From an uncultured archaeon (GTDB lineage Archaea; Asgardarchaeota; Thorarchaeia; Thorarchaeales; Thorarchaeaceae): 64,000 nucleotides of DNA. Shown here piece after piece: positions 4,397 through 61,605 of the stretch; position 1 is the stretch's first letter; every line of letters begins with the position of its first letter. The stretch is taken from contig CAZPWM010000002.1 in NCBI GenBank assembly GCA_964590575.1, positions 9,714-73,713 of the forward strand, read 5' to 3'. The notes beneath the pieces are model-generated. The model was not told the origin of the DNA and ran no database searches. It was given only the letters and a program-made list of their open reading frames with translations. Both the position numbers and the translations under genes were made by a program.

Positions 4397-6412
4397 GTGA
4401 TTTCACATCTTGGACGGGTTATAGTTTCAGGTTCTAAGCTGATAGGAGCGTGTCCTTTGAAAGAAACCTTTGAGTTTGGTGGCGAGATTATCTGGCAGCC
4501 ATCTTTAGAACAAATACAACAGGCTAACCTTACAAGATTCATGAAACTTTATGGGATAGAAACCTTTGATGAGCTCATGAAACGTTCAACAGAAGATGTA
4601 GCGTGGTTTACAGATGCTCTTCTAAAATATCTTAACATTGAATTTTATGAACCATATGAAAAAGTTGTGGACCTCTCCAAAGGAATTGCATGGCCACACT
4701 GGTGTGTTAACGGGAAGATGAACATTGTTCACAATTGTTTGGACAAATACATGAACACACCTACTGAGAACCAATCAGCATTGATCTGGGAGGGAGAGGA
4801 TGGTACGACTCGCACAATGACATATAGTGAATTATACCGAGAGGCAAACAAGACTGCAAACGCGCTTCGTTCAATTGGTTTGGGAGTTGGAGACCCTATC
4901 GGAATCTACATGCCTATGGTTCCTGAAACTGTGGTCGCACTGTTAGCTATAGCCAAAATTGGTGGTATAATCCTTCCATTATTCTCAGGATTTGGAGTGA
5001 GTGCAATCGTTGACCGTTTGGGGGATGCTGATGCTAAGGCAATATTCACAGTTGATGGGTCTGCCCGCAGAGGTAAGATTATTCCAATGAAACCAATTGC
5101 AGATGAGGTTGCCACTAGTATTCCATCACTGAAACATATGATTGTCTTGAATTTAACAGGAACATCAATTGAAATGAAACCCGGCCGGGACCATTGGTGG
5201 GACGAACTCATCTCTGGTCAATCAGAATCTGCAGAAACGGAGATCACCGATGCTGAATCACCAATGATGATAATCTATACATCTGGCACCACTGGACTTG
5301 CTAAGGGCGCTGTTCACACTCACTGTGGATTTCCTATCAAGGCAGCTCAGGACATGTCATTTGGTACTGACTTACATCCTGGTGAAATAATATGGTGGAA
5401 TTCTGACCTAGGCTGGATGATGGGCCCGTGGTTAATATTTGGAGCATTGATTCTAGGAGGTACTTTCTTTATTTTAGATGGCGCCCCTGATTATCCTGGA
5501 CCCGGCCGTCTATGGGAGATAGTTGAGAAACACAAGGTGTCGATATTGGGTGTATCACCTACTCTAATTCGACTCCTGATGACCCATGGCGAAGGCCCGG
5601 TCAAACCACATGATTTGTCTTCACTCCGTTACTTTGCTTCAACGGGTGAGCCATGGAATCCTGATCCTTGGATGTGGCTTTTTGAAAAAGTTGGGAAGAA
5701 AAGGGTCCCAATCATTAACTATTCAGGTGGGACAGAAATCTCAGGAGGCATTGTCATGGGCAATCCTCTATTACCCCTCAAGGCTTGTGCATTCTCTGGT
5801 CCATGTCCAGGAATCGATGCTGATGTGTTCGATGAGGATGGCAAACCTATTCGAAATAAGGTAGGAGAACTGGTCATCAAATCTCCGTGGATAGGGATGA
5901 CACGGGGATTTTGGAAAAACTCCGAACGATATGAAAATACATACTGGTCTCGTTGGAAGAATACGTGGGTCCACGGTGACTTTGCAGCGATTGACTCGGA
6001 TGGACTCTGGTATATACTCGGTCGCTCTGATGACATCATTAAGGTCGCAGGCAAGCGATTCGGACCTGCGGAAGCAGAATCAGTCCTAGTCAGCCATCCT
6101 GCAGTTGCTGAAGCTGCAACAATAGGTGTTCCGCACAAGATAAAGCTCAATGAACTAGTTGTTTTCTGTGTACTTGTCCCAGGGGTTGAACCATCAGAGC
6201 TATTGAGAGAAGAACTGAAACAGTCAGTAGCCACGGCAATGGGAAAACCACTAACACCTAGAGCAGTCCTGTTCGTTTCTGACTTGCCTAAAACTAGGAA
6301 TGCAAAGGTGATGCGTAGAATGATTCGTGCAGCTTACTTAGGAGAAGACCCGGGGGATACTTCCTCATTGGTCAACCCTGAGGCAGTAGATGAGATAAAA
6401 AATGCAAAATAG
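4397..6412 (+). CDS. AMP-forming acyl-CoA synthetase (acetyl-CoA / acetoacetyl-CoA synthetase family)
   Basis: 671 aa; AMP-binding motif IYTSGTTGLAKGAVHTH; GRSDDIIKVAGKRFGPAEAE; C-terminal PKTRNAKVMRR lysine motif region. Confidence 0.85.
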   Translation: MISHLGRVIVSGSKLIGACPLKETFEFGGEIIWQPSLEQIQQANLTRFMKLYGIETFDELMKRSTEDVAWFTDALLKYLNIEFYEPYEKVVDLSKGIAWPHWCVNGKMNIVHNCLDKYMNTPTENQSALIWEGEDGTTRTMTYSELYREANKTANALRSIGLGVGDPIGIYMPMVPETVVALLAIAKIGGIILPLFSGFGVSAIVDRLGDADAKAIFTVDGSARRGKIIPMKPIADEVATSIPSLKHMIVLNLTGTSIEMKPGRDHWWDELISGQSESAETEITDAESPMMIIYTSGTTGLAKGAVHTHCGFPIKAAQDMSFGTDLHPGEIIWWNSDLGWMMGPWLIFGALILGGTFFILDGAPDYPGPGRLWEIVEKHKVSILGVSPTLIRLLMTHGEGPVKPHDLSSLRYFASTGEPWNPDPWMWLFEKVGKKRVPIINYSGGTEISGGIVMGNPLLPLKACAFSGPCPGIDADVFDEDGKPIRNKVGELVIKSPWIGMTRGFWKNSERYENTYWSRWKNTWVHGDFAAIDSDGLWYILGRSDDIIKVAGKRFGPAEAESVLVSHPAVAEAATIGVPHKIKLNELVVFCVLVPGVEPSELLREELKQSVATAMGKPLTPRAVLFVSDLPKTRNAKVMRRMIRAAYLGEDPGDTSSLVNPEAVDEIKNAK

Positions 6413-43144: not shown

Positions 43145-46228
<3,084 letters not shown>

Positions 46229-46458: not shown

Positions 46459-47160
46459 ATGAGAGGGGAATCACATCTGACAGCTTCATTCATGATTAGC
46501 CTGCCTACTCTCATGGTTCTGTATAATATGGCACCAGATACAATGATTGACGTGATGGGTTATGTCCTTGGAGGGGTATTACTGGGTTGCTTACTACCTG
46601 ATGTAGATGCTTCGGATGCCAAGGTGATGCATGGATATTGGAGGCCAATCGGTCTTTTTGGAAAATACCTATTCTATAAACCAATGACATGGATTTTGAG
46701 AACTCGCTCTGACGCATATCGAGAGCAACACCGCGGATATTTACACTCATTTATTGGTTGTTTTCTCGCAACGATTTTCTTTGCAATCCCGATAGCTATC
46801 ATATTTCTACATTCAACATATGTACTGCTTCTTCCCTTAGAAACGACTATTTGGGTTTGGTTTGCATGGATTGGATTACCCTTTGGTTTTCTAATGCATT
46901 TGGTTGAAGACAGCTTCACAAAATCAGGAGTACGATGGATTTTTCCTGGCGGTAAAACCTATTCAAGTCAGACAACCACTGGAAAAAAGAGTGAGTATAA
47001 TCTTCTATCAGCATTCGTCGTCACATATGGCATTCTCACAGTTATTGTATACATGGCGCCTCCCTCGTTTATTGTTCTATTTGGGGCTATTCTTGGATCC
47101 CTGGTTTTGTTGGGTGCGCTTTATGCGGCTAATCCGATAATTAGTAGACTTTCAAAGTAG
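46459..47160 (+). CDS. membrane-bound metal-dependent hydrolase-like protein (DUF457/YdjM-like)
   Basis: Multi-TM, conserved His/Asp positions (HLTAS, LPDVD, HRGYLHS, HLVEDS). Confidence 0.5.
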   Translation: MRGESHLTASFMISLPTLMVLYNMAPDTMIDVMGYVLGGVLLGCLLPDVDASDAKVMHGYWRPIGLFGKYLFYKPMTWILRTRSDAYREQHRGYLHSFIGCFLATIFFAIPIAIIFLHSTYVLLLPLETTIWVWFAWIGLPFGFLMHLVEDSFTKSGVRWIFPGGKTYSSQTTTGKKSEYNLLSAFVVTYGILTVIVYMAPPSFIVLFGAILGSLVLLGALYAANPIISRLSK

Positions 47161-47506: not shown

Positions 47507-48481
47507 GTGACGTTCAAACCAGACAAACTCAGTAAGGATGCTATATCCGCAGTGAAGCAGATAATAGGTTATAGAAGCACTCCGATGGAAGACAGACCAC
47601 AAGTAGAAGATATGTTTCAGACATCATTTGGAAAAACACTTGGTAGCCAAGTTGGTGAAATTCTAGATTTTGCAAAGAGAGGACAAATTCTCCTAATAAT
47701 ACTTCCACTCACTAAAATCATGGAGAAATTACAGAGATTCATTCAAGATGGAAGTTATCTTAGGGCTGAGGAAAGCTCTCTATCACCCAAAGATATTGAT
47801 AAGATGAAGGCCTTTGAGGTTGTCATGCAGGATGTCGATGTTGAGGACACTGTAGAAACTGTGGAAGATGTGATAGACCAGGACGATGAGCTCTGGTACC
47901 TGTCATTGATAACATTTACAGTGTATGCGTATGTGGATGTTTACTCGAAGAGTCTAATCAAAAGTTTGACATCAAATCCATTACTGATGGAGAAATTAGA
48001 AACATATCTTGAAAGAGAAGCGCTTCAAAATAAAGACGATATAGAGAGAAAATATGTCACATCAGTTACAGATCTCTCGCAGTACGGAGTTAGTCGGAGG
48101 CTTTGGACCATAGAAAGAGGTCTGTCAATAGACCAGATTTTATCTAAGATCACAAATCCAGATGTTCTTAGCATAATTAGAAGCAGCTTTATCAAAATCA
48201 TAAAAACAAGACATAAAATTGCACATAGAAATCCAAAGTTGAAAAGAGATGACTACACATATGAGATGTTTGAGGGTGTTTCAAACACTGTCGAAGAATT
48301 GGATTTCACTTTTAATGAAATAGAAGAAACATTCGGATTTCTGAAGCCAATATTTGGCACAATCAAAAATCTGGGAAAGCAGACAATGGATAGAATTAAG
48401 AGAACTATGAATATTGCCTACATGACAATGCTGTATCCAGCATTAATTGATGTAGTAGTTCACGATTTGATGGAAGATTAG
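47507..48481 (+). CDS. hypothetical acidic protein with C-terminal Rx4H (HEPN-like) motif
   Basis: 324 aa; KTRHKIAHRNP near C-terminus; otherwise unrecognised. Confidence 0.45.
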   Translation: MTFKPDKLSKDAISAVKQIIGYRSTPMEDRPQVEDMFQTSFGKTLGSQVGEILDFAKRGQILLIILPLTKIMEKLQRFIQDGSYLRAEESSLSPKDIDKMKAFEVVMQDVDVEDTVETVEDVIDQDDELWYLSLITFTVYAYVDVYSKSLIKSLTSNPLLMEKLETYLEREALQNKDDIERKYVTSVTDLSQYGVSRRLWTIERGLSIDQILSKITNPDVLSIIRSSFIKIIKTRHKIAHRNPKLKRDDYTYEMFEGVSNTVEELDFTFNEIEETFGFLKPIFGTIKNLGKQTMDRIKRTMNIAYMTMLYPALIDVVVHDLMED

Positions 48482-48770: not shown

Positions 48771-48804
48771 GAAAAAAGAGGGGGCGGCAAATTAGCACCG
48801 CCCC
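48771..48804 (-). terminator. intrinsic-type terminator: GC stem ggggcgg/ccgcccc + T6 on minus strand
   Basis: Seen directly: plus gaaaaaagagGGGGCGGcaaattagcaCCGCCCC; on minus strand hairpin followed by CTCTTTTTT; ~275 nt downstream of tnpB stop. Confidence 0.5.
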
Positions 48805-48809
48805 ATTGA

Positions 48810-49080
48810 ACTGAGAATTAGTGATTACTTCTTTGATCCACCTCGATCGGCTGCACTCTGTGCACGTCTAGCAAAACCTTGATTTCGACCAGACTTGGCT
48901 GAATGACTCTGGATTCTGGATGCTGAACTCTTGGACATTCCTTTTTTTCCCAATGATTCACCTCCGTATTCATCATGAGGAATACTTGGCAGAATCAGAA
49001 TATCAGACTTTGATGATGTGCATTGCATACGAATATTGTGCAAATCAGATTCACAGTACCTAGAGTTAAAACCTGTATCT
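48810..49080 (-). ncRNA. predicted TnpB omega-RNA (right-end element RNA) region
   Basis: Position immediately 3' of tnpB, GC-rich, bounded by terminator; established architecture of IS200/IS605 TnpB guide RNAs; exact ends unknown. Confidence 0.4.
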
Positions 49081-50816
49081 TACAATTGTGAGTGAACTGC
49101 AAGAGACTCCTGTGTTCCACCTTTCTCACGACTACTGTCACCAGCTTCTGAATGTCTGGGGTCTTTCAGAGTGTCGCAAGCTTTGCCCCTCTTCACTGGA
49201 ACATCGTTCCTCTGATGGGACCTGGCTTCTGTCCGCTGCATTGATTCACACTCACCAGTTGGTGCGATTGCAGTCGGTGTTTCCACAGCATTTGCCATGG
49301 CAAGGTCTTTGCCCCTCACAAACTCCACAAGTGAAGTCTGGTCATAGGAGCCAGCCACGGACTCCCCTTTCGAGTCTGGTGTCCCCTGGGGGAGTGCGGA
49401 CTTCCCTACAGAAGAAGACTTCTTCCTCCGGGCTTTCAGTATGGCCCTATCCTTAGAGGTGAGCCACATCCCTAGTCCGTTCTCATCTCTCAGTGAGGGG
49501 ATGAGCATGATGAGGCGCTTCCCAATGTTGAGAGCGCCATTCAGGTCGGCGTTCAGCTTTAGTCCACAAGTGGTACAGATGAAGAGATTCTGCTTCGGTC
49601 TCGCTCCCTTATGTCCGCATTTGTGACACATGATGGAGGTCCATTGCTCTGGAACTGCTTTGAACCTCTTGGGATCGAAACCAATTGATGCGAGCTTGTG
49701 CTCCAGCATCCCACTGATTCTTGCAAAGGCCCATCGGTGAATCTTTCCCCTGTACTCTCTTCCCCTGCTGTTCCCCTTGCGGGCTATGTTCCTGATTCCC
49801 TTCAGCCGACCGATTGAGACATAGAGGTCATTTTGGTTTGTCATCTCTCTGATGTGGTCAGAGATGTCCCTAATCAGTTTCTTGTCATACTCTATACTGA
49901 TTCGTTCTCTCTTTCCACTCAGACTCCTGAGCTGTGCAGTCACTCGATCAGTGTTCTGACCTTTGGAAACAAGGAGCTCTTTCTCTTTCTGGAGTGAAGC
50001 AACCCTCTCATCCAAAGACCTTATGCGTCGGAGCTTGTCCTCTTGTTTCCAATATCTGACGTGCTTGTATCCCTTCTTGGTTAGAAGGACTGAACACGCA
50101 GCCTTGTTTATTCCAAGGTCGATGGAGAGAACAGCAAGGGGCTTTCTAGCGGTATCAATCCTGTCAACAGCAAGAGTGACGGTGAAGATAGCCCACCACT
50201 TGCGACGAGAATCCTTGAAGATTCGAACTGTCTTCACATCTCCCTCCTTCATCCTGTTTAGATGAAATGATGAGATGGAGAGGGGAATCATGAGTCTATC
50301 ATGCTGATAACGCCCCTCATTCACAGAGTCCAGCGAGTCCCGTAGTTTCAACCAGTGTCTAATCTCCAGCTCTGGTGAGTATACAAGCTCAAAACGTTGG
50401 ATGAATGCAAAGCGTGGGATCTTTCGAGTAGAATATCCTATTCTCCTAAGGGGTTTGGAACCACCTTTTTCAAGATAGCTCTGCCACATGGCAACTGCAG
50501 TACCCCTACACTCCTGAAACTCGTTCACTGAAATGTTTGGAAATCGAACCTTGAAGTCATGGGGTACCGAACTTCGGTTGGCTTTGCCTCGGGATGCTGT
50601 CAGGGTGAGTTCATCTAGTTTATTTGCGTCAAGTTTACTTCGTCTACGACCTATCAGCAACTCGTCTTCGTGACATTCAATCACTCCAAGATACGCCCTG
50701 ATGACTCTTGTGTCTCTTCCAGTAATTCGGTTGAGCCGAGTCTTCTGCTTGTCAGTCATAGAGTCCCAACGTATTGGGACCTTCACACTGATTATTGTAC
50801 CCTTGGAGCGACCCAT
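49080..50816 (-). CDS. tnpB: TnpB/OrfB-family RNA-guided endonuclease-like transposase-associated protein (IS200/IS605, IS1341-like), with ~130-aa low-complexity C-terminal extension
   Basis: RuvC-I LSIDLGINKAA, RuvC-II E, zinc finger CHKCGH...CTTCG, RuvC-III NADLNGALNIGKR; no tnpA nearby. Confidence 0.85.
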   Translation of the reverse strand: MGRSKGTIISVKVPIRWDSMTDKQKTRLNRITGRDTRVIRAYLGVIECHEDELLIGRRRSKLDANKLDELTLTASRGKANRSSVPHDFKVRFPNISVNEFQECRGTAVAMWQSYLEKGGSKPLRRIGYSTRKIPRFAFIQRFELVYSPELEIRHWLKLRDSLDSVNEGRYQHDRLMIPLSISSFHLNRMKEGDVKTVRIFKDSRRKWWAIFTVTLAVDRIDTARKPLAVLSIDLGINKAACSVLLTKKGYKHVRYWKQEDKLRRIRSLDERVASLQKEKELLVSKGQNTDRVTAQLRSLSGKRERISIEYDKKLIRDISDHIREMTNQNDLYVSIGRLKGIRNIARKGNSRGREYRGKIHRWAFARISGMLEHKLASIGFDPKRFKAVPEQWTSIMCHKCGHKGARPKQNLFICTTCGLKLNADLNGALNIGKRLIMLIPSLRDENGLGMWLTSKDRAILKARRKKSSSVGKSALPQGTPDSKGESVAGSYDQTSLVEFVRGKDLAMANAVETPTAIAPTGECESMQRTEARSHQRNDVPVKRGKACDTLKDPRHSEAGDSSREKGGTQESLAVHSQL

Positions 50817-51065
50817 TCATTTCACCTGAGGATTTAAACTTCTGACCTGTCTCTTTCGAGTTCACTCCCTTTCTCGTCAAGATGAAAGGTTTTGAACTCC
50901 TACTATTTTCTGTTACATAAGGGGATTTAAACTTATTAAGCCGTTTATGAAATAAGGCATTATGAGGCACTATTATTTAAAATAAGACATTATCAATCCT
51001 TATTTGACTCACCAATAAGAACGGATATCTTATAAATTAAAATATAAGGAAGATACTGATTTGAT

Positions 51066-54000
51066 ATGGGTCGCAAGCCTAGGGAGATACATCCGAATGC
51101 AATACTGACTGTCTCGATCTATACAGGACTTGCTGCATTGGTCAGGCTTGCGAGAAAGCGAGTTGACAAGAAGACACGGAAATACCTTGAGAGCATTCTA
51201 ACACATTGGAGCAAAGCTCGAGAAGAACACAAGAAGAATCGAGAGAGTGTTGGAAGACAACGACTTGACTTCTCCTCAATCAAGAACGCAGAGTCCAACA
51301 TGCGAAAATTCTTCCTCAAGATTCTCTGGCACAGTACGCGACGTTATGGGAACAAGGAATTCAAGCGGGTATACAGCTGGGAAGAGGGAACTGTTGGACC
51401 ACTTAATGCATTACTCAACTACCTTGGAGCCCGACTGAGAGACCTAGCAATGACCAGATATCCATTTCCAGAACCCGAGAAATTCCAGATCAGGGTATAT
51501 CCAGATGAGACAAGATTGACGGTTCAAAAGAAACACGTGTCTAATTATGCACAGGATAATGCTGAAGACACATACTGGAAGGCAGGATACAAGGGAAACA
51601 GGAAACATCCCACAGTGTTGTTGACACACCCCTCACTACCAGGATTGGACTTTGTTGATATGATACGTGCCCATGGTGTTGAGCTTGTCCGTCAGTGTTT
51701 CATCCACAATGTTCCACGGTCTGAAGCTCACAGGTACATCAGATTGTTGCTCCATAGACTCACTCCGTTCTTGGACCATGTCTATACTCAAGGAAAGTGT
51801 GGTAGAAACTACTTCGAGCCAGATGCCGACAAGGAGCTCAGAAGACTGGTTCTGGAGATCCGTAGTCGATACAGTGGGCGTGTGGGGAAGAAACAGTCCA
51901 TATCCAGAGGTCTGGACCTGGACATCCCGGAACCCGATGTGGACATCTTGTGGAAGAAAGTGAGTGAGCTGGTTGAAAACACTCAGGACAAGAAGACAAG
52001 AAAGAGATACGGAAAGATTCTGGATAATATTGACCAAGGACTAATTGTAGACAGGGACATCCAGAAGCTCTATGACCAGGTCTTTGCCCTTGGACAGAAG
52101 GAGGGAAATGACTGGCACAGAGTCCTCCTGTCGGACCTTCACCACCCCGTGTCGTTGAGGTCTGTGATCTTTGCTGGGGACAGGATGCTTGACAAGCCCA
52201 CATCGGTCCTGATTGTAGCCGAACTCCCAGTGAAAGGACTCGAAGGGATTGGACGCATAGATTTGACCGTGTTCATCAGGCTAAACATCAAGGGGCGCGT
52301 GTTCTGGAGTCCTGTGATGGTCATTGAGGTCAAGTCAAAGACCTCTTTCGACTTCAATCTCTATGCTGTGAAGACTGGTAAGAAGAAAGAGTGGCCCCCA
52401 GTACTATACGTATGGAAGAGAATTCTGACACAGGAGGAATGGGACAGGACCATAGAGTCAGACCCTGATGACCGGGTCTTAAAGCAACTCGAGGCCTACG
52501 AAAAGGCATTGTTGGAGGAGAGCAGGACTCTGATTCCCAATGGTGTCGAACTCCCAAAGAGGCTCCTGAAGGGAGTTATTGTGCTTGACACAGATCAGGA
52601 CTACTCGGAGGTATTCAATGCTTTCCACACTCTTCTCGATGAACTGACCACTGAGATTCTCAAAGGCGGACTTGATGTGAGAGCAACTCAGACACTGTCT
52701 CTCAAGTCAGATGATGTTGGTGTTACCATTCCACGAGTTGCACTGATGCTTCTAGAGAGCGAGAACATAGACACATTCCTCAGGGAGCAGTCAGCTACTT
52801 TGTCACTCTCTGTTGAGAATCCCTTCAAGGAGAGAGTGTCTGATGACCGTCTGCTGACACACTATGTTTCAATTTCTTCTTCAACATCTTTCGGGAACGC
52901 AGCAGCATGGGTTTCTAGAAACTGGCACCTTTTGAACCACATCGAGGAGGTCGCTGAAGGATTGAGTGAGGACCTACAAGTCTACTGGCTCGATCTCTTG
53001 GGTGACTATCCATCCAAACAACTCATCAAGAGAAGGTTTGGTCTTGACACTCTATTGAAGCACAAGCAGATTGCCAAGAAGAGGCATGAAGCACTGACCT
53101 CTCTCCTTGAGAGTATCACCTTTGTCAACCTGAGAAACAATGTTGAGTCTATTATCTCTGGGGAATCTGCCGAACTCCAAGAGATCAAGATGAAAGGCCC
53201 TCATGACATGGAGAGAATCATCATTGTTGATGGATGGGTTCAAATCAGAGAGATGGTTTCTCCAGGTGAAGCGGACATTCTGAGAAACTTTGAAAACCAC
53301 CTCTTAGATGTTCTACCCACCCAGAATGTGAATGTGATTTGGATTGACAGTGGAGTCACCCACACAAAGATGAACAAGCACTATCAGAGGGCCTGTATAA
53401 GACCTCTACGTCACGACTCCCCTCGCCGGTTTCACATAGACGAAATTATCTACAATGTACCAACTGCACCACGGTTGTTTGGTTGGAGGGTTCCAAGAAA
53501 TGAGGACACGAGGTTCATCATCCAAGACACTCCAACCTCCGCAGATCCCTGGATACGACCCATAAGAGTGCCGCAACTGAGGGGATGGGCCCGAAAGTAT
53601 CGAGGAGTCACAAAAAGGGATGGATTCGTCGACCCAGCAGATGTCTATGGGATTGACTTCGAGGGAGTACCTATGTATGGTCGTTCTGTGACACTCAATG
53701 AGGTCCACTCATCGATTGCACCCCTGACATCTGAAACTGTAAAACATCTGCAAGGAATTGGAAAGACCCTCATCCCAAGTCTATCAAGGCGAGAGGAATC
53801 AGCTCCAGACAGACAGTCAACAGAGAAACAATGGAGGGGGGTTCCGTTGCCCGTCACCAGAAAGGACTCTCCTTCACTCACCGACAGAATGACTTTCACA
53901 CCTGGGAGACCTCCTCCACAGCATCACAAGAATAGGGGATTGTATGTTGATTTCTTGAAAATCAAGAGGGGCTGGTACTATGACAGAATCCCCATTGATA

Positions 54001-56705
54001 TCAATGACGAGGAGTATGAGGTGGGAGTTTCCCGAAGACCACCAATATATCGAAGGACTGGACTGGATGAGGTGGATTCACAAAAAGTCCGCAGGAGAGA
54101 GGTCAAACGAGTCATGAGCGCAGCGAGATTCCTGAGAAGACAGCTTGACAAAGACAAGAATAGTCGCCTTCACTCATGCTGCGGCGACATTATCAGAGTG
54201 TGCGCAGATGTGCTCTCAGACACCCATGATGAAGAGGCCTTGTTGGTCGTTCTATCGGAGGTTAGAGGCATCATTCTCCGTGATTCTTGGAGGGCCCAAC
54301 TATGGGACCTTGTTGAGAGTTCAAGAGAAACAGTTGGTGACGTCCTGACGACTGACAACAGGACTGTACTGACAATGGCTAGAGAATTCTGTCCTGACAT
54401 TCTCTCCCTCTATGGGAACAATCTGTTCCTTGCCCTTCTCACAGTTATCAAGACACACTCCCTGAAACCTTCGGAGGACGTTATCATAGCCCTCTGGGAG
54501 TCGATGGCTGAATGGCGGTTGTACCAGATGGGATTCCGTCAGAAGGACCATGCAGAGGAGACTGCAAGTTCACAGTATGACTTCCAGTTCATCTACTCGA
54601 AGCTGGTGCTCCGAGTAGAACATCTGACTGATGTTACCACCCCACCTCTTCAAGCACCAGTCGAGGATGTGGCCTACGGCCAGCTTGTTTGGACTGAGAG
54701 AGAAGGTGCTCAGGATGTATGGGTTGTGTTACCAGACGTAAAAACGCCACTCCTTGGCCTTGAGTGCGGAGTCAGGGGTAGTGGAATGAAGCCTGGGTGG
54801 CATCAATGCGTGACAGATCCATCTACCCTGAAGACCTCAGTCAAGACTCTATCTGAAACTACGCTGAGGAGTCAGATTGCCCGGACCGTTATTGGGAAGA
54901 CTCACATTCTATGGTTCATGGATGAGGTCGAAGGGGAGTATCAGTGGACTACACCAACAGTCTTTGAATTTGCCATCAGTAAAGAGGATGGCCGATTGCT
55001 TCGATGGTTCAGGCTCTCTCCTGTTCTTGAGAGTATCTTCTTGGAACTGGAGAAGAACAGACCCAGACAGATTCCAAGGGCTGGAACTGATGTGGACTCT
55101 CTGCTTTTTGGAGCCTTCAAAGGTTCACAGGACATTGAAGAAGTGAAAGTCCAAGTGAGTGTGGACATTGAAAACGAACTGTACTTGGTAGAGTTCAGTT
55201 CCGGTCATGTTTTCAGAGTGAGGAACACGCATGAACTAATCGGTCTGCTCAAACATCCTTACCTGAAGGGAGCACCTCTCAGGACAGATGATGATAGACT
55301 GTTGTTCTGGGACCATAAGAAGGACATCGAGTATGCATATGTTGTTGACAGGCGAGGGAAGAAAGGTCATGTCATAGACCTTTCATTTCTCAGACCTCTG
55401 GTTCATCGTGCGAACCTATTTTCTCTTGGTGACTTATTTCCCAAGACCTGTGCAGATCTCCTCAACACGAGTGATGGAGGAACCATCACTCTGGTTGCGA
55501 AGGTGGATAATAATCGTCGGAATAGGGGTGATTTCAACTTCATCAAGGTCAGACTGATAGGACTACCAAAGAGGTCGCGGTTGAAGACTCTTGAGGATGA
55601 GTGGATGAACCCATATGATTTAGAACTGATTCTTGGGTGTGAAGGATTGGTTGACTCCACTATTGGAAACAACTTCTCCCTTGAAACAGATGTGAGTGAG
55701 CTGAGGGGTGTTCGTCTGCCTTCGGGACTGGATGAGGACTCACAACTAGTCAAATCCCTCGTTATTGAAGACGATGGAGAGGAAGAACAGAAACCGTTAC
55801 TTCCGGAAGGTGAGTGGACCCTGTCCAGTAAGTTCAAGGGGGGAACTATCCAATGGAGTCTAGACTCACCACTCGCAAATCAGTTGTGGATGGGCAAGAC
55901 CTTTAGTACAAGGCTGGACGGGACTCTGAGTATAGAGGAAATGGTGAAGGAGTTTATCGGGGAGCTGAAGATAGTAGGTGCATCAAAAGATAATATCCAC
56001 AACTTTGATGAAGAGCTCGATGACATAAGAGAAGGACTCAGAGGATGTGGTTGGGGGAACGAGCGTCCAGAGTGTAGGGCTGAAGCTGTGCAAACTGGCG
56101 GAGGGGTCAGAATATCTCTAAGAACCTGTGGAGAGAATGAGGTCATAGTCTATGAAGATGTCATCAATCCAGGTGAAGATGATGCTGCGGACTTGGTAAT
56201 CGATGCTCTTGATGATTATGAATGGTCTAAATACACTACTGTGAACAAAGAGGAGTTCAGGAGGATGTTGAGAGGAATCTTGGACGACGAAGAGCTGGAA
56301 CCAGATGTTGTTGATGTTGAAGAGGCAGAACTGCTGATGATTGTTGAAGAATGTAGAGTCGAGGGTAACCTTAGGTGGATGTGTAGTCAGACAAACACAC
56401 TGGTAGATTATTACTTACGACAAGAGCGGCTTGATGTTGCTCTAGAGAAGATAGATGAGAATCTCTCAAATCTCGAGACCTTGGACTTGGATGATGAAGA
56501 TGGACGTTGGTACTTGTTCATAGCCAGAGTCTTAAGAGCTGAGATACTCCTTGCAACAAATAATCCCAAAGAGTCAAGGAAAGAAATAGACAAAGCCTTT
56601 GAGATCATTCCTGATGATGTTGAGTTGTGGATGTTAGGAGTTGGGACAAGAAGAGAGTACTATGAGCGAGGTATGAAACTTAGAACTGATGTAATTGATT
56701 GTTAG
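51066..56705 (+). CDS. giant protein (1879 aa) of unknown function with RecB-like PD-(D/E)xK nuclease motif
   Basis: Uninterrupted 5.6-kb ORF; aa ~385-490: AELPVKGLEGIGRIDLTVF ...VMVIEVKSK ... QLEAY (D / ExK / QxxxY); no Walker A/B; TATA-like ttataaa ~30 nt upstream of ATG. Confidence 0.6.
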   Translation: MGRKPREIHPNAILTVSIYTGLAALVRLARKRVDKKTRKYLESILTHWSKAREEHKKNRESVGRQRLDFSSIKNAESNMRKFFLKILWHSTRRYGNKEFKRVYSWEEGTVGPLNALLNYLGARLRDLAMTRYPFPEPEKFQIRVYPDETRLTVQKKHVSNYAQDNAEDTYWKAGYKGNRKHPTVLLTHPSLPGLDFVDMIRAHGVELVRQCFIHNVPRSEAHRYIRLLLHRLTPFLDHVYTQGKCGRNYFEPDADKELRRLVLEIRSRYSGRVGKKQSISRGLDLDIPEPDVDILWKKVSELVENTQDKKTRKRYGKILDNIDQGLIVDRDIQKLYDQVFALGQKEGNDWHRVLLSDLHHPVSLRSVIFAGDRMLDKPTSVLIVAELPVKGLEGIGRIDLTVFIRLNIKGRVFWSPVMVIEVKSKTSFDFNLYAVKTGKKKEWPPVLYVWKRILTQEEWDRTIESDPDDRVLKQLEAYEKALLEESRTLIPNGVELPKRLLKGVIVLDTDQDYSEVFNAFHTLLDELTTEILKGGLDVRATQTLSLKSDDVGVTIPRVALMLLESENIDTFLREQSATLSLSVENPFKERVSDDRLLTHYVSISSSTSFGNAAAWVSRNWHLLNHIEEVAEGLSEDLQVYWLDLLGDYPSKQLIKRRFGLDTLLKHKQIAKKRHEALTSLLESITFVNLRNNVESIISGESAELQEIKMKGPHDMERIIIVDGWVQIREMVSPGEADILRNFENHLLDVLPTQNVNVIWIDSGVTHTKMNKHYQRACIRPLRHDSPRRFHIDEIIYNVPTAPRLFGWRVPRNEDTRFIIQDTPTSADPWIRPIRVPQLRGWARKYRGVTKRDGFVDPADVYGIDFEGVPMYGRSVTLNEVHSSIAPLTSETVKHLQGIGKTLIPSLSRREESAPDRQSTEKQWRGVPLPVTRKDSPSLTDRMTFTPGRPPPQHHKNRGLYVDFLKIKRGWYYDRIPIDINDEEYEVGVSRRPPIYRRTGLDEVDSQKVRRREVKRVMSAARFLRRQLDKDKNSRLHSCCGDIIRVCADVLSDTHDEEALLVVLSEVRGIILRDSWRAQLWDLVESSRETVGDVLTTDNRTVLTMAREFCPDILSLYGNNLFLALLTVIKTHSLKPSEDVIIALWESMAEWRLYQMGFRQKDHAEETASSQYDFQFIYSKLVLRVEHLTDVTTPPLQAPVEDVAYGQLVWTEREGAQDVWVVLPDVKTPLLGLECGVRGSGMKPGWHQCVTDPSTLKTSVKTLSETTLRSQIARTVIGKTHILWFMDEVEGEYQWTTPTVFEFAISKEDGRLLRWFRLSPVLESIFLELEKNRPRQIPRAGTDVDSLLFGAFKGSQDIEEVKVQVSVDIENELYLVEFSSGHVFRVRNTHELIGLLKHPYLKGAPLRTDDDRLLFWDHKKDIEYAYVVDRRGKKGHVIDLSFLRPLVHRANLFSLGDLFPKTCADLLNTSDGGTITLVAKVDNNRRNRGDFNFIKVRLIGLPKRSRLKTLEDEWMNPYDLELILGCEGLVDSTIGNNFSLETDVSELRGVRLPSGLDEDSQLVKSLVIEDDGEEEQKPLLPEGEWTLSSKFKGGTIQWSLDSPLANQLWMGKTFSTRLDGTLSIEEMVKEFIGELKIVGASKDNIHNFDEELDDIREGLRGCGWGNERPECRAEAVQTGGGVRISLRTCGENEVIVYEDVINPGEDDAADLVIDALDDYEWSKYTTVNKEEFRRMLRGILDDEELEPDVVDVEEAELLMIVEECRVEGNLRWMCSQTNTLVDYYLRQERLDVALEKIDENLSNLETLDLDDEDGRWYLFIARVLRAEILLATNNPKESRKEIDKAFEIIPDDVELWMLGVGTRREYYERGMKLRTDVIDC

Positions 56706-56879
56706 ACAACCTAGAGTTGTTCAAGGAATGTGTGTTGTAGTAATGAATAGTATCTCCATCTTCTGATGTCTTTATTTTTCTCCTTGCATTTTATGAAACA
56801 GCAACCTCCATCCTTTGTTGTCGTTTTTTTTCTTTTTCACAAACGTTGATTAGATAAACCAAAACTGAGAATCATTACG

Positions 56880-57722
56880 ATGATTCAGAGAGTTCTATTG
56901 TTCAGAAACCTACTAGATAACATACCTAAGAACATTGGACTATACTCAGTGGGCGTCATGCTTCTTTTTCTGTTTCGTGTCACATTTGACCCATTGCAAT
57001 TGCTGTTGGGACTGCTTGCCTTCATGGTTTCTTATTCATCGATTTATGTGCTTAACGATCTATATGATATTGAAGACGACAAGAAAGATGAAAAGAAAGT
57101 TCTGAGAAAACCCTTAGCTCAGGGCGTCGTGAATAGAAGCGAAGCTGTGAAGATTTTCCTTTCATTTTTGATTCTGGGTCTTCTACTCTCTATTTTTCTC
57201 AATATGTTATTCTTCTGTGTAGTTAGCTCATTAGTCTTCATCAACATGATTTACTCTATTCCATTAACAACAAACACGAACCAGAGCATAGAAGAGGTGA
57301 GTCCAAGAAGATTGAAACACACTATGTTTGGACCATTTCTAGTTTTCCTCATGCAATTTCTGAAGATTTTCCTTCCTTGGACATTTAACACAGAGGTGAT
57401 GCAATTTCCAGTTCTTTTTGCTATCGGATTTTCTCTCGTCTATGTTATACTTTTCAAAGGTTACAAAGAATATCGCACTATTGGAGAATCTGTCAAGCAG
57501 ACACCGTTTTCCTTTTGCTTCGCGATTGTTGTTTTCTTATTGTCAATGAGCATATATCCCGAACCTTTAGTTCAAGCATCAATAGTACTCTACATAATTG
57601 CAGGAATCATGTTCTTCTGGAATTCACACATTACTGATAGAAGGATCTTACTATTGAGCCCAATCTATATCCTTCTAGGAATTCTGATCTTGTTCTATTT
57701 AATGACAAATGTACTGACCTGA
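56880..57722 (+). CDS. UbiA-family aromatic prenyltransferase
   Basis: Multi-TM; NDxxDxxxD motif (VLNDLYDIEDD). Confidence 0.75.
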   Translation: MIQRVLLFRNLLDNIPKNIGLYSVGVMLLFLFRVTFDPLQLLLGLLAFMVSYSSIYVLNDLYDIEDDKKDEKKVLRKPLAQGVVNRSEAVKIFLSFLILGLLLSIFLNMLFFCVVSSLVFINMIYSIPLTTNTNQSIEEVSPRRLKHTMFGPFLVFLMQFLKIFLPWTFNTEVMQFPVLFAIGFSLVYVILFKGYKEYRTIGESVKQTPFSFCFAIVVFLLSMSIYPEPLVQASIVLYIIAGIMFFWNSHITDRRILLLSPIYILLGILILFYLMTNVLT

Positions 57723-57811
57723 CAACAAAGTTATGCTTGATGAGTAGCACGTGACCTCCATCACTTGTTGTCGAATATTTCTAACAACCTACTTCTGACA
57801 TTGAATAGAAT

Positions 57812-59185
57812 CTACACACGTCTTGCAGCTTCATAAACAGGTAACAAACGAGCTCTCCAAGCTGCAAGCTGCTTCGGTGATTTCGGATAATCAGCGTAAA
57901 TCTCCCTCATGTTAGCCATCAATTTAGAAACCGCAGACACCCTCTTTAGAAATGATACATTCCCGAGTCCAGAGATTAGTCGTTTAAACTTCTCGCTACT
58001 ACTTGTCTTCATTTCACCAGTTACGCTTACACTGAGGAGGTCTGAACCTTTGATGATTCCCTTTCTGAATGCAAAATTGATTTCATCATTTGTGACATTG
58101 AGGAGATATTCCTTGAAGATATCGAGTGCTGCTTGTTTCACACCATAGCTTCCCATGTATCTCTCATTATAAGACCAAAGAGATTCGATAGATGTATCAT
58201 TCACATTAAGTGCTTCAGAGGCTGTTATTCCAGCAAGAGCGCCTCCCAGCATGGAAGGACCTATTCCTCCTCCATGGACCGGATTGACCTGACATGCCGC
58301 ATCACCCGCAAGCATGAAGTTATCATCAACCAACGAATCTATTGGTCTCCTCATTGGCGCTATCCCTCCACTGCTATCAATGTCAATATTCTTCTTTTTC
58401 ATGAAGTCCCAATTGGTCCGGACAAAGTTATCGAATATCTCATGTGGTCCTCCATGTCCTGAGAGAGTTAGTAAACCAACTCCTACGTTCACCTTATGGC
58501 TGCCCCGAGGAAAGACCCATGTGTATCCTCCGGGTGTTTGGGTCTGGTTCCAGTAGATCTCAAGAATATTGGGGGTTTCAAATGTGTGTTCAGGTGTTTC
58601 AAGGATAGATCGCCATGCAACCATCATATCCTGTTTATCGATATTTCTTTCAATCAGCGAATTCTCAGGCAACTGCCTTCTGAGCATCCCCGCTGCACCC
58701 GTGGCATCTACAATGATTCTAGCAGTAAGACTCTTGTCTTTATTTTCGTCATCGAGTTTTACCCTCACACCAGATACTTTTCCTTCATCAAAGAGAAGGT
58801 GCTTTACTCTGGTAGATGGCAGGACTTCTACTCCCTCCTTTTCTGCCAGAGATAACAACCACTGACCAAGCTTTAGCCTGTTGAATGAAAACCCCTCAAT
58901 AGTCGGACCATCCAGTCGTAACCTATTCTCTCTATTAGGTGCAATCAAGTCTATGCCATTAAGGGTGTGCTCCACTATGCTATCAGGTATTGATGGAAAT
59001 CCAATTAGCTCTTTGAGTTTCCTTGGATGATGAGCGGCAAGTGCATCACCACAAGTCTTGTCACCGATTTTCTCCTTGTTCTTTCTGTCAATCAATAAGA
59101 TTGTATATCCTCTCCTTGCAATAGCCAATGCGGTTACCGCACCTGCAGTGCCAGCTCCTGACACGATAACATCGTAGTCTTTCAT
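57812..59185 (-). CDS. geranylgeranyl reductase family FAD-dependent oxidoreductase (457 aa)
   Basis: YDVIVSGAGTAGAVTA dinucleotide motif, GDAA motif (LAGDAACQVNP), GGR-like. Confidence 0.8.
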   Translation of the reverse strand: MKDYDVIVSGAGTAGAVTALAIARRGYTILLIDRKNKEKIGDKTCGDALAAHHPRKLKELIGFPSIPDSIVEHTLNGIDLIAPNRENRLRLDGPTIEGFSFNRLKLGQWLLSLAEKEGVEVLPSTRVKHLLFDEGKVSGVRVKLDDENKDKSLTARIIVDATGAAGMLRRQLPENSLIERNIDKQDMMVAWRSILETPEHTFETPNILEIYWNQTQTPGGYTWVFPRGSHKVNVGVGLLTLSGHGGPHEIFDNFVRTNWDFMKKKNIDIDSSGGIAPMRRPIDSLVDDNFMLAGDAACQVNPVHGGGIGPSMLGGALAGITASEALNVNDTSIESLWSYNERYMGSYGVKQAALDIFKEYLLNVTNDEINFAFRKGIIKGSDLLSVSVTGEMKTSSSEKFKRLISGLGNVSFLKRVSAVSKLMANMREIYADYPKSPKQLAAWRARLLPVYEAARRV

Positions 59186-59312
59186 CTCCCAAATTCACCT
59201 AACTTGTCCAAATTTCAATATGCGATGGAATCTAAGATTCTTGTGAATAGCTTTGTCCAACTTAAGCGCTCATTTTCGTGCATTATTGCTCTTTAGAATT
59301 CAAGACATCCCT

Positions 59313-60080
59313 ATGGAGAATGTTATCAAGCGGTTCAATATCGCAGTGCGAAGTTATCTATTCAAGATTGAAGGATTTGGTTCAATGAGTAAAGGAGTCC
59401 TCAAAGTCTTCTCAGAGGTTGCTCGCCAGTATGAATTGGTGAACCACATCCTGACATTTGGTCTTGATATTCCTTGGAGAGAGAGGGCCGCCCAAGTAGC
59501 TGCGTCAGGTGGAGGGGCTCTCTGGTTAGAGGTCTGCAGTGGGACCGGAGAAATGGCTGTTAATCTCAAGAAGATCGCAGATCCTACCACTAAGATTGTT
59601 GTATCCGATTTCTCCATGCCCATGGTTTCAAAGGCTAGTGAAAAAGAAGAACTTGGCACAGCTTCGATTTCACTTGCTGACTCACTACATCTTCCCTTCA
59701 TTGAAAATACGTTCGATCTTGTGATAATTTCTTTTGCAACTCGTAACATCACACCTACCCGTGCAAAATTGACAATGTTTCTCCGAGAATTTTATCGTGT
59801 ATTGAAACCTGGTGGTCGCTTCATCAACCTCGAAACCAGCCAACCTTCTTCAACGCCAATCAGAATCGCTTTTCGCCTATACACAAGACAAGTCATTAAA
59901 TTGGTCGGAAGGATAATCTCAGGCTCAAAGACAGGATACGCATACTTGGCACATACTGTCCCCAGATTCTTTAATGCAGAAGAACTTTCAGACATTCTTT
60001 ATGAGTCTGGGTTTTCAAACGTAAAATACATTAAATTGACATTTGGTGCTGTGGCAATCCACCGTGCTCTGAAAAAATAG
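59313..60080 (+). CDS. class I SAM-dependent methyltransferase, UbiE/MenG (COQ5) family
   Basis: VF..VA..Y...N..L..G.D..WR N-terminus, SAM motif LEVCSGTGEMA, family-typical C-terminus; start placed at ATG 59313 (MENVIKRF). Confidence 0.75.
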   Translation: MENVIKRFNIAVRSYLFKIEGFGSMSKGVLKVFSEVARQYELVNHILTFGLDIPWRERAAQVAASGGGALWLEVCSGTGEMAVNLKKIADPTTKIVVSDFSMPMVSKASEKEELGTASISLADSLHLPFIENTFDLVIISFATRNITPTRAKLTMFLREFYRVLKPGGRFINLETSQPSSTPIRIAFRLYTRQVIKLVGRIISGSKTGYAYLAHTVPRFFNAEELSDILYESGFSNVKYIKLTFGAVAIHRALKK

Positions 60081-60164
60081 AGTTCACATTAAACCAGAAA
60101 CCTTTTCAAAAAGGCGAATGTTTTTACTAGATTATTTGAAGAGCCCTTCTAGGTCTAAAAGACC

Positions 60165-60362
60165 ATGCTTCAATTAGCATCTATCGGAATCATGTTGATG
60201 GCTCTCAGCATTATTCCCCTTCTTTTCCTTCTGTACACAATAACGCACCTAGGAAAACTGGGAATTGAAATTAAACATCCTAGAGTGATAGTCGAACTAA
60301 TGTTATTTATTGGACTCTTATTGGTGGGGCTAATTTTCTGGTTTGGCCAACCTATAATCTGA
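60165..60362 (+). CDS. small 2-TM membrane protein (65 aa)
   Basis: Two hydrophobic helices; ORF only. Confidence 0.4.
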   Translation: MLQLASIGIMLMALSIIPLLFLLYTITHLGKLGIEIKHPRVIVELMLFIGLLLVGLIFWFGQPII

Positions 60363-61605
60363 TTACCTTCTCCTCTTTTCTGCTTCTCTCAGCGGCAAAG
60401 GTCATCAGATGTGTTTCTAGAGTTTCCTCAGGTCCTGAAAGAATCAGACTTGGGTCATTATGCGCAACTGCAGACACGAAGGTATCTATGAGAGTATAAT
60501 CACCACCACCGTGATCTGCGAGGGAATCAGGAATACGCGGGGCATCTATGGTAGTATCAAAAATTTCTGTTTTGCCGCTTAGAAACTGGTGGATCTGGAT
60601 TTTCTCGCTGTTTGCGTATATCTCACCACGACTGCCGAAGATTCGAGTTTCCCTTTGCCTGGCTTTAGTGAACCCAGTCATCGTGAATGAGGCTGTTTCT
60701 CCTCCCTCGAACTCCATATTGACTACTTGATGATCCACGACATCATTGTCGCATTCGTACACACACCGACCGTATGGTCCTGTTCTAAGCTCATGAATTA
60801 TTCCTCCCTTTGTCATCTCCGAAGTGATTGTACTCAGAGGCCATTCGGTCCTTCCCTGTTCAAAGAGTTTCAAATAGAATCTCTTTGCAGAATACGGACA
60901 TTCCGGTTCATAATCACATTCCAAACAATTACTTCCTGCAGTTTCAGGTTTGTTTTCACTACGAAAATGTGTCAGAGACCCGAATGAAGACACAGTCGTG
61001 CATTTCTTTCCCATGATGTATCTAATCCAGTCGAGGTCGTGACAGGATTTTGTAAGTAACATAAAGGATGATTCTTTCTCATTTCTCCAGTTTCCTCTCA
61101 CAAAGGAGTGTGCCTGATGCCAATATCCAACTGGTTCCAGATGTTGAAGACTTATGACATCTCCAATAATACCCGAATCAAGAATCGCTTTGAGTTTCTG
61201 AGTGTACCTGGTGTATCTGAGAACATGACCAACAGCGAAGACTATGTTTCGTGAAAGAACGGTTTTTGCGATCTCTCTGCAGCTCTTTTCATCGGGTGCC
61301 ATAGGTTTCTCTAACAGAATGTGGTAGTCTTTCTTGGCAAATGCAATTGCAGGGTCTCGATGCATATGATCTTGAGTTGTGATTATGACTGCATCTGCGA
61401 ACTTCTTTTTCTTTGCCATGTCTTTCCAATCAGTGAAAACATTCTCTTCGGGTATATTATAGTCCTTTACCATTTTCTCTCGATAGAAATCACGTGGTTC
61501 TGCAACACCAACGATTTGTGCTCTTTTCGGGTGTTCTTTAGCATAGGAGGCATATACGAAACCTCGATCTCCAGCTCCTGCAATTATCAACTCGACTGGT
61601 TTCAT
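60352..61605 (-). CDS. Gfo/Idh/MocA family NAD(P)-dependent oxidoreductase
   Basis: N-terminal Rossmann (ELIIAGAGDRG), EKPMA motif (LLEKPMAP). Confidence 0.8.
   Translation of the reverse strand: MKPVELIIAGAGDRGFVYASYAKEHPKRAQIVGVAEPRDFYREKMVKDYNIPEENVFTDWKDMAKKKKFADAVIITTQDHMHRDPAIAFAKKDYHILLEKPMAPDEKSCREIAKTVLSRNIVFAVGHVLRYTRYTQKLKAILDSGIIGDVISLQHLEPVGYWHQAHSFVRGNWRNEKESSFMLLTKSCHDLDWIRYIMGKKCTTVSSFGSLTHFRSENKPETAGSNCLECDYEPECPYSAKRFYLKLFEQGRTEWPLSTITSEMTKGGIIHELRTGPYGRCVYECDNDVVDHQVVNMEFEGGETASFTMTGFTKARQRETRIFGSRGEIYANSEKIQIHQFLSGKTEIFDTTIDAPRIPDSLADHGGGDYTLIDTFVSAVAHNDPSLILSGPEETLETHLMTFAAERSRKEEKVIRL

Follow-up and report, generated by a model that had tools for sequence, protein, structure and literature searches.

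A putative transposon of Thorarchaeota that pairs a giant Cas1-like protein with TnpB and an ωRNA-like scaffold

We have analysed a 64-kb stretch of archaeal DNA (the window; coordinates given without a locus label are positions in it, and L-numbers such as L027 denote loci in other genomes) which contains, at 49068–56708, a gene for a giant protein of 1,879 amino acids (aa) and, divergent from it, a tnpB-like gene. It is probable, though far from assured, that this segment is one copy of a two-gene putative transposon specific to Thorarchaeota (Asgard archaea), in which the giant protein is the integrase or transposase, and TnpB with its guide RNA (ωRNA) serves the retention of the element. 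What was observed directly, and is described below, comprises the folds, the conserved residues and synteny, covariation in the RNA, the sharp boundaries of the module, its multiple copies, and direct repeats in some loci. The element is known in kind, having so far been described computationally only, and is not a new discovery. Its features in the window are as follows.

49068–56708: putative two-gene element, divergent tnpB (minus strand) and giant gene (plus strand), with a 10-bp direct repeat on both flanks
49058–49067, no strand: left copy of the direct repeat ACCTAGAGTT, beginning right after the last conserved scaffold base
49068–49302, minus strand: ωRNA-like scaffold across the tnpB 3′ end (5′ limit approximate)
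49089–49096, minus strand: TTCACTCA loop motif within the scaffold, which also has a terminal stem
49089–49097, minus strand: GTTCACTCA motif at the tnpB 3′ end
49080–50816, minus strand: tnpB-like gene, short form, 578 aa, matching Pfam, NCBIfam and Cas12f models
50826–50945, no strand: conserved intergenic block
51066–56705, plus strand: giant gene, 1,879 aa, Asgard Cas1-like multidomain protein (‘aCas1’)
51243–51920, plus strand: Cas1-like domain (~aa 60–285), with candidate catalytic residues E98, H188, D195 and D198 (plus R201) and a Cas1-like ‘LNALLNY’ helix
52188–52601, plus strand: PD-(D/E)xK (RecB-like) nuclease domain (~aa 375–512), with E386, D399, E421-x-K423 and Q474xxxY478
52833–53615, plus strand: RecA-like domain (~aa 590–850), P-loop position degenerate, Walker-B-like D643 and D722 conserved
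54078–56300, plus strand: helical and beta-rich domains (~aa 1005–1745), confidently modelled and less conserved than the N-terminal half
56313–56702, plus strand: TPR-like C-terminal helical repeat (~aa 1750–1879), variable or absent in ~1700-aa paralogues
56709–56718, no strand: right copy of the direct repeat ACCTAGAGTT, 4 nucleotides (nt) after the giant-gene stop codon

A multidomain protein with a Cas1-like N-terminus

The giant gene is, as an earlier note on this DNA had described it, an uninterrupted 5.6-kb open reading frame (ORF); it has an ATG start and is the longest in its region. Sequence searches with its product against Pfam, NCBIfam, PADLOC and PDB returned only a weak TPR match, and TPR was likewise the only match of its five most distant relatives in Pfam. 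Two AlphaFold2 models were built with 88-sequence alignments, one of aa 1–900 (pLDDT 83.4, pTM 0.83) and one of aa 960–1879 (pLDDT 86.7, pTM 0.40, the low pTM reflecting several domains placed independently). Structure comparison of the model reveals a Cas1-like fold at the N-terminus, and it is this fold with its E-H-D(xx)D residue set, together with the family and its mobile-element logic, that the earlier note had missed. Residues E98, H188, D195 and D198 are invariant among homologues, and in an alignment made by hand the giant segment YGNKE98FKRVYSW pairs with LRGIE141GSRVRATY of E. coli Cas1, and LTH188PSLPGLD195FVD198MIR201 with FVH208TGKPLSFVYD218IAD221IIK224 (E. coli positions 141, 208, 218, 221 and 224 were read from the K-12 genome); we take E141, H208 and D221 to be the active-site residues of the E. 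coli protein. The Cas1 assignment of ~aa 60–285 is well supported at the level of fold, and the corresponding catalytic residues are candidates suggested by the hand alignment.

The nuclease signature on which the earlier note was built (E...D...ExK...QxxxY) is borne out by both sequence and structure. In an alignment of 120 homologues at 33–71% identity, E386, D399, E421, K423, Q474 and Y478 are each at least 97% conserved, and the same six residues are invariant or at least 90% conserved in 48–88-sequence alignments. In the model, E386, D399 and E421-x-K423 lie on three successive strands (381–389, 396–408 and 411–425) and Q474xxxY478 on the long helix that follows, which is the core layout expected of a PD-(D/E)xK nuclease; the ordered RecB/Cas4-like motifs E, D, ExK and QxxxY are thus found on a restriction-endonuclease-like core. 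There is no conserved cysteine in aa 375–512 in the homologue alignments, and so this is not a four-cysteine iron-sulfur nuclease of the Cas4 type. The reported lack of a P-loop or ATPase holds for the sequence, which has no Walker A motif, but not for the fold, as a RecA-like domain is modelled at ~aa 590–850 with ‘SPTSSGNxAAW’ at the P-loop position; because this P-loop is degenerate, even with the Walker-B-like aspartates kept, ATPase activity is doubtful.

The most conserved stretch of the protein in the 120-homologue alignment is not the nuclease but the Cas1-like N-terminus (aa 80–265), with the motifs G95-N-x-E98-x-K-R-V-Y-x-W, G111-x-L-N114-x-L-L-N118 and H188-P-x-L-P-x-x-D195-F-x-D198-M-I-R201; other conserved blocks are at aa 586–650, 743–838 and 1080–1183, and past aa 1550 the protein is variable, or missing in ~1,700-aa paralogues. 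This order of conservation bears on the earlier proposal that the protein is a stand-alone giant PD-(D/E)xK nuclease, a new defence or addiction effector carried as cargo. Such a role would suit the conserved nuclease motif and the foreign composition described below, but PADLOC gives no match, no relatives were found in viral contigs (IMG/VR), the four neighbourhoods inspected hold no toxin-antitoxin partner or defence-island context, and the giant gene is the constant core of the unit rather than its cargo. We regard a defence or addiction effector as highly improbable.

A small family confined to one lineage and paired with tnpB

Although described as an orphan, the giant protein has 172 homologues in a word-indexed search (33–71% identity, 1,200–1,900 aa), those with a named source all being called Candidatus Thorarchaeota, and an exhaustive phmmer search with aa 1–900 against 1.84 billion cluster representatives (50% clustering) returned 165 relatives, every one with the giant-protein architecture or pieces of it; this is thus a small family, limited to a single lineage. 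When one genome of each GTDB species was scanned, 90 stretches matched; 80 loci were kept from these, of which 78 are in metagenome-assembled genomes (MAGs) of Thorarchaeota/Promethearchaeota. The other two are L084 (JAOUKW010000231.1), from a ‘Heimdallarchaeota’ bin, and L029 (CAYOSZ010000100.1, 7.8 kb long), from an ‘Ignavibacteria’ bin; they probably reflect wrong binning, or else rare spread beyond Thorarchaeota. A single MAG may hold as many as 10 copies, and paralogues inside one genome are mostly deeply diverged (25–50% aa identity).

The divergent TnpB gene that had been placed about 250 bp away is confirmed, its start lying 249 bp from that of the giant gene. Its 578-aa product scores 51 bits with Pfam Cas12f1-like_TNB, against a cut-off of 26.3, and 94 bits with NCBIfam guided_TnpB, for which the cut-off is 100; it also matches many Cas12f models and aligns to solved TnpB/Cas12f chains. 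The four homologues whose neighbourhoods we inspected (39–65% identity) each have a gene for a 555–713-aa TnpB divergently upstream at 180–260 bp, with unrelated housekeeping genes as the remaining neighbours. Using a hidden Markov model built from these four TnpBs, we find a tnpB divergently upstream in 55 of the 60 loci with at least 1.8 kb of upstream sequence, usually at a distance of 170–260 bp. The link is thus not accidental, and the explanation that an ordinary tnpB-only insertion sequence happens to lie beside an unrelated large gene, for which the repeats around tnpB and the exchangeability of its cassette (see below) could be cited, is effectively refuted by the side, orientation and spacing kept in these 55 loci with giants down to 24–27% identity. 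The gap is 1.1–1.4 kb, rather than ~250 bp, in L046, L036, L038 and L050, and that of L046 holds an additional 236-aa ORF (5277–5987).

The TnpB proteins come in a short form (~540–590 aa, n = 34), to which that of the window belongs, and a long form (~685–730 aa, n = 18). The short form has D233 at RuvC-I, a glycine (G336, in ‘IGRL’) at the position of the canonical RuvC-II glutamate, an alternative E390 in ‘PExWTS’, and D424 at RuvC-III, and this pattern is kept together with the CxxC...CxxC zinc finger in 33–34 of the 34 short forms; in the window the zinc finger is intact, and D233 and D424 are conserved residues. Long forms keep the canonical RuvC-II glutamate (‘FEDL/FENL’). A glutamate-to-glycine change at RuvC-II with a compensating glutamate is the pattern given for RIIr-5, the largest rearranged clade and one predicted to be active, in the relevant passages of Altae-Tran et al. 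2023 (PMC10691335). From its residues, the window TnpB has a rearranged and probably active RuvC site. We considered and rejected a TldR-like function for it, as a nuclease-dead repressor of the divergent gene, since the RuvC catalytic residues are retained; the hallmarks of TldR (loss of RuvC residues or C-terminal truncation) are not seen in the window protein.

A covarying scaffold that stops where the element stops

The final ~235 nt on the tnpB strand have a nucleotide conservation of 0.6–0.87 per 20-nt block, with a sharp drop after ~49068. RNAalifold on 24 loci gives 40 pairs, of which 18 show compensatory changes; the fold of the single sequence is not exceptional (z = -1.7), and covariation is therefore the evidence for the scaffold. 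Its 3′ end is a compound hairpin in which an outer stem, GTTTCTTAC/GTAAGAAAC, surrounds a variable inner stem and the TTCACTCA loop. The terminal 9-bp outer stem is 78.8% paired, compared with 36–57% when it is slid along as a control, and none of 500 shuffles pairs to that extent; the TTCACTCA core, allowing one substitution, is present in 32 of 33 short-form loci. The C-terminal ~40 aa of TnpB are read-through of the ωRNA DNA, and in the window lineage the tnpB frame continues through that DNA to give 578 aa rather than ~558.

Past ‘...ACAGGT(C/T)(A/T)’ the sequences are unrelated, even among the closest copies (the window, L027 and L046), and a conserved scaffold followed by hypervariable sequence is the behaviour of an ωRNA scaffold with a flank-derived guide. 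The alignments suggest that the short variable stretch 5′ of GTTCACTCA is an arm of the covarying stem and not a guide, the likely guide position being after the scaffold end. When a second match to the guide region was sought within each locus, as a possible promoter target, only tRNA-derived repeats were found. Modules with the long form stop equally sharply at another conserved terminus, ...TGTCCAACTTACAATGAACG|, ~30 nt past the tnpB stop codon (L044, L062, L069, L076, L014, L032 and L055), so that any ωRNA in them lies almost wholly within coding sequence. In the window, a GC-rich hairpin, GGGGCGGTGCTAATTTGCCGCCCC, followed by a T-run lies on the tnpB strand at 48780–48804 (minus), ~265 nt past the ωRNA end, and could terminate read-through transcripts leaving the element.

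Module boundaries and apparent insertion beside tRNA genes

Homology with the closest copy, L027 (giant 70% and TnpB 83% identical), is collinear over 49031–56699 and absent outside it. Copies within the same MAG (the pairs L044/L062, L069/L076, L019/L033 and L014/L026) are 75–93% identical in nucleotide sequence and lie on different long contigs, with the homology again confined to the module. We conclude that the module is a unit of duplication which was inserted in the past at different sites. The element is also richer in GC than host genes, as the earlier note had estimated from spot counts: its GC content is 0.472, versus 0.426 in the rest of the window (among 7.6-kb segments the standard deviation is 0.009 and the highest value 0.440), and GC at third codon positions (GC3) is 0.50–0.52, versus 0.40–0.41 in four downstream neighbour genes. 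The element is compositionally foreign and probably mobile.

The left copy of ACCTAGAGTT abuts the scaffold end, just where the ωRNA guide would start, and the right copy follows closely on the giant gene, and the pair looks like a target-site duplication, with an estimated chance of ~3e-4 that such a 10-mer pair would occur at both boundaries. In all of the repeat-bearing loci (the window, L023, L019 and L064) the left copy starts 20–24 nt from TTCACTCA. The repeat of L023 is 17 nt of the 3′ end of a tRNA-Gly gene, those of L019 are 13 and 11 nt, and those of L064 are 22 and 13 nt and include the 5′ part of a tRNA and its promoter; L027 has a 10-mer only, which is at chance level. Overall, at least six short-form loci have a tRNA gene or fragment next to the ωRNA end, and nine loci other than the window, when scanned with Rfam, showed tRNAs but no rRNA. 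The proposed rRNA integration hotspot is unsupported, because the visible insertion targets are tRNA genes, and the flanks in the four inspected neighbourhoods are unrelated housekeeping genes. At L023 (8345–8440) the giant stop codon is followed by a 35-nt copy of the 3′ half of tRNA-Gly and then by a decayed ωRNA end (ctagactgttatattgttagttaacc), which resembles what another insertion, in tandem at this tRNA, would leave behind. The two ends of the element share a weak ~11-nt similarity (TGTATCTTACAAT / ATTGTTAGACA), and terminal inverted repeats are not clear.

The recurrence of insertions beside tRNA genes could also be explained if TnpB-ωRNA directed the Cas1-like integrase to its site, instead of acting in retention, and the element were a Cas1-based RNA-guided transposon. 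There is a precedent in Cas12k, which is inactive as a nuclease and guides Tn7-like CAST elements, and both the strict pairing of an RNA-guided protein with an integrase and the TPR and RecA-like parts, which could mediate contact between them, are compatible with it. However, the position of the guide is external to the element, within the flank or the duplication, and would thus be set by insertion rather than choose its site; the nuclease site of TnpB is plausibly active, unlike that of Cas12k; and no array or second guide was found. RNA-guided integration of this kind is very unlikely.

A conserved intergenic block and an exchangeable tnpB cassette

The sequence between the two genes is conserved at 50826–50945 far beyond the needs of a promoter. 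It consists, in order, of a TATA-like box, TGACCTGTCTC, GAGTTCACTC, a covarying hairpin, TTTTGAACTC, and a second, identical TATA-like box 92–96 nt on; TGACCTGTCTC is the reverse complement of the last 11 nt of the scaffold, and the hairpin is closed by an inverted copy of the TTCACTC motif. Comparison of the window with L046, in which the TnpBs are 80% and the giants 31% identical, shows high identity limited to 49065–50954, that is, to tnpB and the block, and short and long TnpB forms are interspersed on a neighbour-joining tree of the giants (no bootstrap). The block or cassette may be a nested insertion sequence, a regulatory unit, or a second RNA gene. In L047, tnpB is separated from the giant gene by three tandem copies of the block (TATA-like box, CAACCTGTTCG, hairpin, TTTTGAACTC; ~5540–5983), and this triplication suggests that the ~100-nt block functions as a unit in its own right, perhaps as a gene for a small RNA.

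A more elaborate possibility has two layers: a tnpB-ωRNA cassette that can be exchanged, and is bracketed by repeats of its own, would dock at the conserved ~100-nt site upstream of the Cas1-like giants, and its guide would help to choose or regulate Cas1-mediated integration. We think this quite unlikely, but if true it would amount to a Cas1-based machine for RNA-guided DNA insertion, and to a present-day counterpart of the first encounter between a Cas1 integrase and a Cas12 ancestor.

Mobile element or domesticated gene pair

Several observations weigh against a two-gene transposon driven by a Cas1-like integrase. The tnpB gene is bracketed by repeats of its own and, to judge from the sequence comparisons above, the tnpB-ωRNA cassette seems to pass from module to module without the giant gene, so that the two genes may not form one simple transposon. 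The link to Cas1 comes from one structure-comparison method and the hand-aligned motifs: Cas1 is absent from the top 50 Foldseek matches in PDB, where Foldseek recovered the RecA-like domain only, a profile of aa 1–300 found nothing relevant in PDB or Pfam, searches with Pfam Cas1 (PF01867) and PDB Cas1 profiles did not match the giant protein, and hhalign gave no signal for the family N-terminus against either E. coli Cas1 or a profile of 120 type I-E Cas1 proteins (a narrow profile, its members being at least 77% identical, which makes for a weak test). As for mobility, 22 of 27 short-form loci have no flanking repeat, and a lone 10-mer is weak evidence, as controls with mismatched pairs yield 10-mers in 18% of pairs when 1.5 kb is searched. 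We found no copies more than 95% identical among those compared, so that recent transposition lacks support, and no relatives of the giant protein in the IMG/VR viral contigs that were scanned.

Some of these observations would be expected if the pair were a domesticated, immobile two-gene system, an old family of Thorarchaeota paralogues whose ‘ends’ are simply gene boundaries and whose task might be to repair DNA, to rearrange the genome, or to defend the cell in the absence of a CRISPR array. The paralogues within a genome are mostly at 25–50% aa identity, flanking repeats are lacking at most loci, copies lie among housekeeping genes and none in viral contigs, the intergenic block is very strongly conserved, and the family is confined to one lineage. 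Domestication accounts poorly, however, for post-scaffold sequence that is hypervariable between close copies, which suits a guide set by the flank better than a fixed cellular target, or for module-limited duplicates at 75–93% nucleotide identity with unrelated flanks, direct repeats associated with tRNAs, the remnant of a second element end in L023, and a GC3 foreign to the neighbour genes. We consider domestication unlikely, and continue to favor a transposon with a Cas1-like integrase.

Relationship to known systems

The Cas1 homologues behind the name ‘aCas1’ are reportedly those of Makarova et al. (CRISPR J, 2020). The pairing described here, which the earlier note could match to no well-known architecture, corresponds to a set of putative Asgard transposons in Altae-Tran et al. 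2023 (PMC10691335). According to the passages of that paper which concern them, TnpBs linked to ‘Asgard Cas1s (aCas1s)’ form two Asgard groups, Cas1H-Asgard-1 and -2; the frequent presence of repeats on the flanks of the loci makes aCas1 the probable transposase of a separate transposon family; and the sequence downstream of tnpB includes a hypervariable region as well as a conserved GTTCACTCA motif (PMC10691335). The loci described here likewise have an Asgard host, a TnpB beside a very diverged Cas1 homologue, GTTCACTCA at the tnpB 3′ end, two TnpB groups (short rearranged and long canonical), and a proposed transposon with a Cas1 transposase. As for flanking repeats, the window has one of 10 bp and L019, L023 and L064 have clear ones, L027 has a 10-mer at chance level, and 22 loci have none. 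On the strength of the host, the Cas1-like partner, the two TnpB groups and the exact motif match, we place the element in the aCas1-TnpB family, and from these four shared features its identity with the published ‘aCas1’ is likely. Nothing in those passages is contradictory to our data, and the main text of PMC10691335 gives neither the ~1,900-aa architecture nor the swapping of tnpB cassettes. One difference concerns the hypervariable region of that paper: here the variable stretch just upstream of GTTCACTCA is read as part of a covarying hairpin, with the guide after the scaffold. The fusion of PD-(D/E)xK, RecA-like and TPR parts, the reading of the variable stretch as a stem arm, and the likely guide position appear to go beyond the published text, as far as its passages on these loci are concerned.

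Comparison with better-known systems shows partial resemblances only. The element shares with IS200/IS605 OMEGA systems the TnpB fold and zinc finger, an ωRNA over the tnpB 3′ end, and a scaffold that stops at the element boundary with the guide taken from the flank, but it differs from them in the RuvC-II glycine with an alternative glutamate and in having a Cas1-like giant as partner; no TnpA (Y1 HUH) or serine recombinase ORF was found in the module or the inspected neighbourhoods. Casposons are self-synthesising transposons driven by Cas1 (casposase). Unlike them, the element has no family-B DNA polymerase (there are two genes only, and no Pfam PolB match), its integrase is one of several domains of a 1,879-aa protein, it carries TnpB and an ωRNA, and it has a candidate 10-bp duplication with unclear terminal inverted repeats. 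It differs from the CRISPR adaptation complex Cas1-Cas2(-Cas4) in that the cysteine cluster of Cas4 is absent from its nuclease, the domains come in the opposite order, and Pfam Cas1 does not match; there is no cas2-like ORF in the module and no CRISPR repeat array in 48–58 kb.

Genomic surroundings in the window

A further feature in the window is upstream of the element:

43147–46226: archaeal large-subunit (LSU) rRNA gene

The earlier note had put the block just downstream of an rRNA gene, and such a gene does exist, but it lies 2.8 kb away with two unrelated ORFs between. The LSU gene is complete, and no small-subunit (SSU) rRNA, 5S rRNA or tRNA was found in the 64 kb, so that the rRNA genes appear to be unlinked in this genome. 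Of the two intervening ORFs (46459–47160 and 47507–48481), one encodes a YdjM-like membrane protein (Pfam, 59 bits), and the other encodes 324 aa that match HEPN RiboL-PSP below threshold (22 bits against a cut-off of 28); neither travels with the element at other loci. Downstream, 56880–61605 holds housekeeping genes for a UbiA prenyltransferase, a geranylgeranyl reductase-like flavoprotein, a UbiE/COQ5 methyltransferase and a GFO/IDH/MocA oxidoreductase, whose GC3 of ~0.40 marks the host background.

Proposed mechanism and implications

We infer all of the enzymatic activities, the guide and its target-adjacent motif (TAM), and the division of labour between the two proteins, and propose the following scheme. 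The Cas1-like domain, modelled with E98, H188, D195 and D198 as its candidate active site, would join the element ends to a staggered target and so generate a short duplication, and the fused PD-(D/E)xK nuclease may, by analogy with Cas4 or TnsA, cut or trim DNA ends; the RecA-like and TPR parts may serve in assembly or partner binding. TnpB would bind an ωRNA. The scaffold of this RNA extends across the 3′ end of tnpB as far as the end of the element, and because it stops there the guide would be read from flanking DNA. An element-free site would then be cut by TnpB-ωRNA and repaired from the element-bearing copy. This would correspond to the retention or homing role that Meers et al. (2023) reportedly demonstrated for TnpB in IS200/IS605 elements.

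The element unites the two presumed ancestors of type V CRISPR systems, a Cas1 integrase on the one hand and TnpB, together with its guide RNA, on the other, and this pairing is found in the archaeal lineage closest to eukaryotes. The value of the present analysis is in correcting an ‘orphan nuclease’ to a member of a described mobile-element family, and the mechanism is of real interest in understanding how CRISPR arose. Should the giant protein be an active integrase, it would represent a new transposase architecture, combining Cas1, PD-(D/E)xK and RecA-like domains, and may be a compact source of programmable tools.

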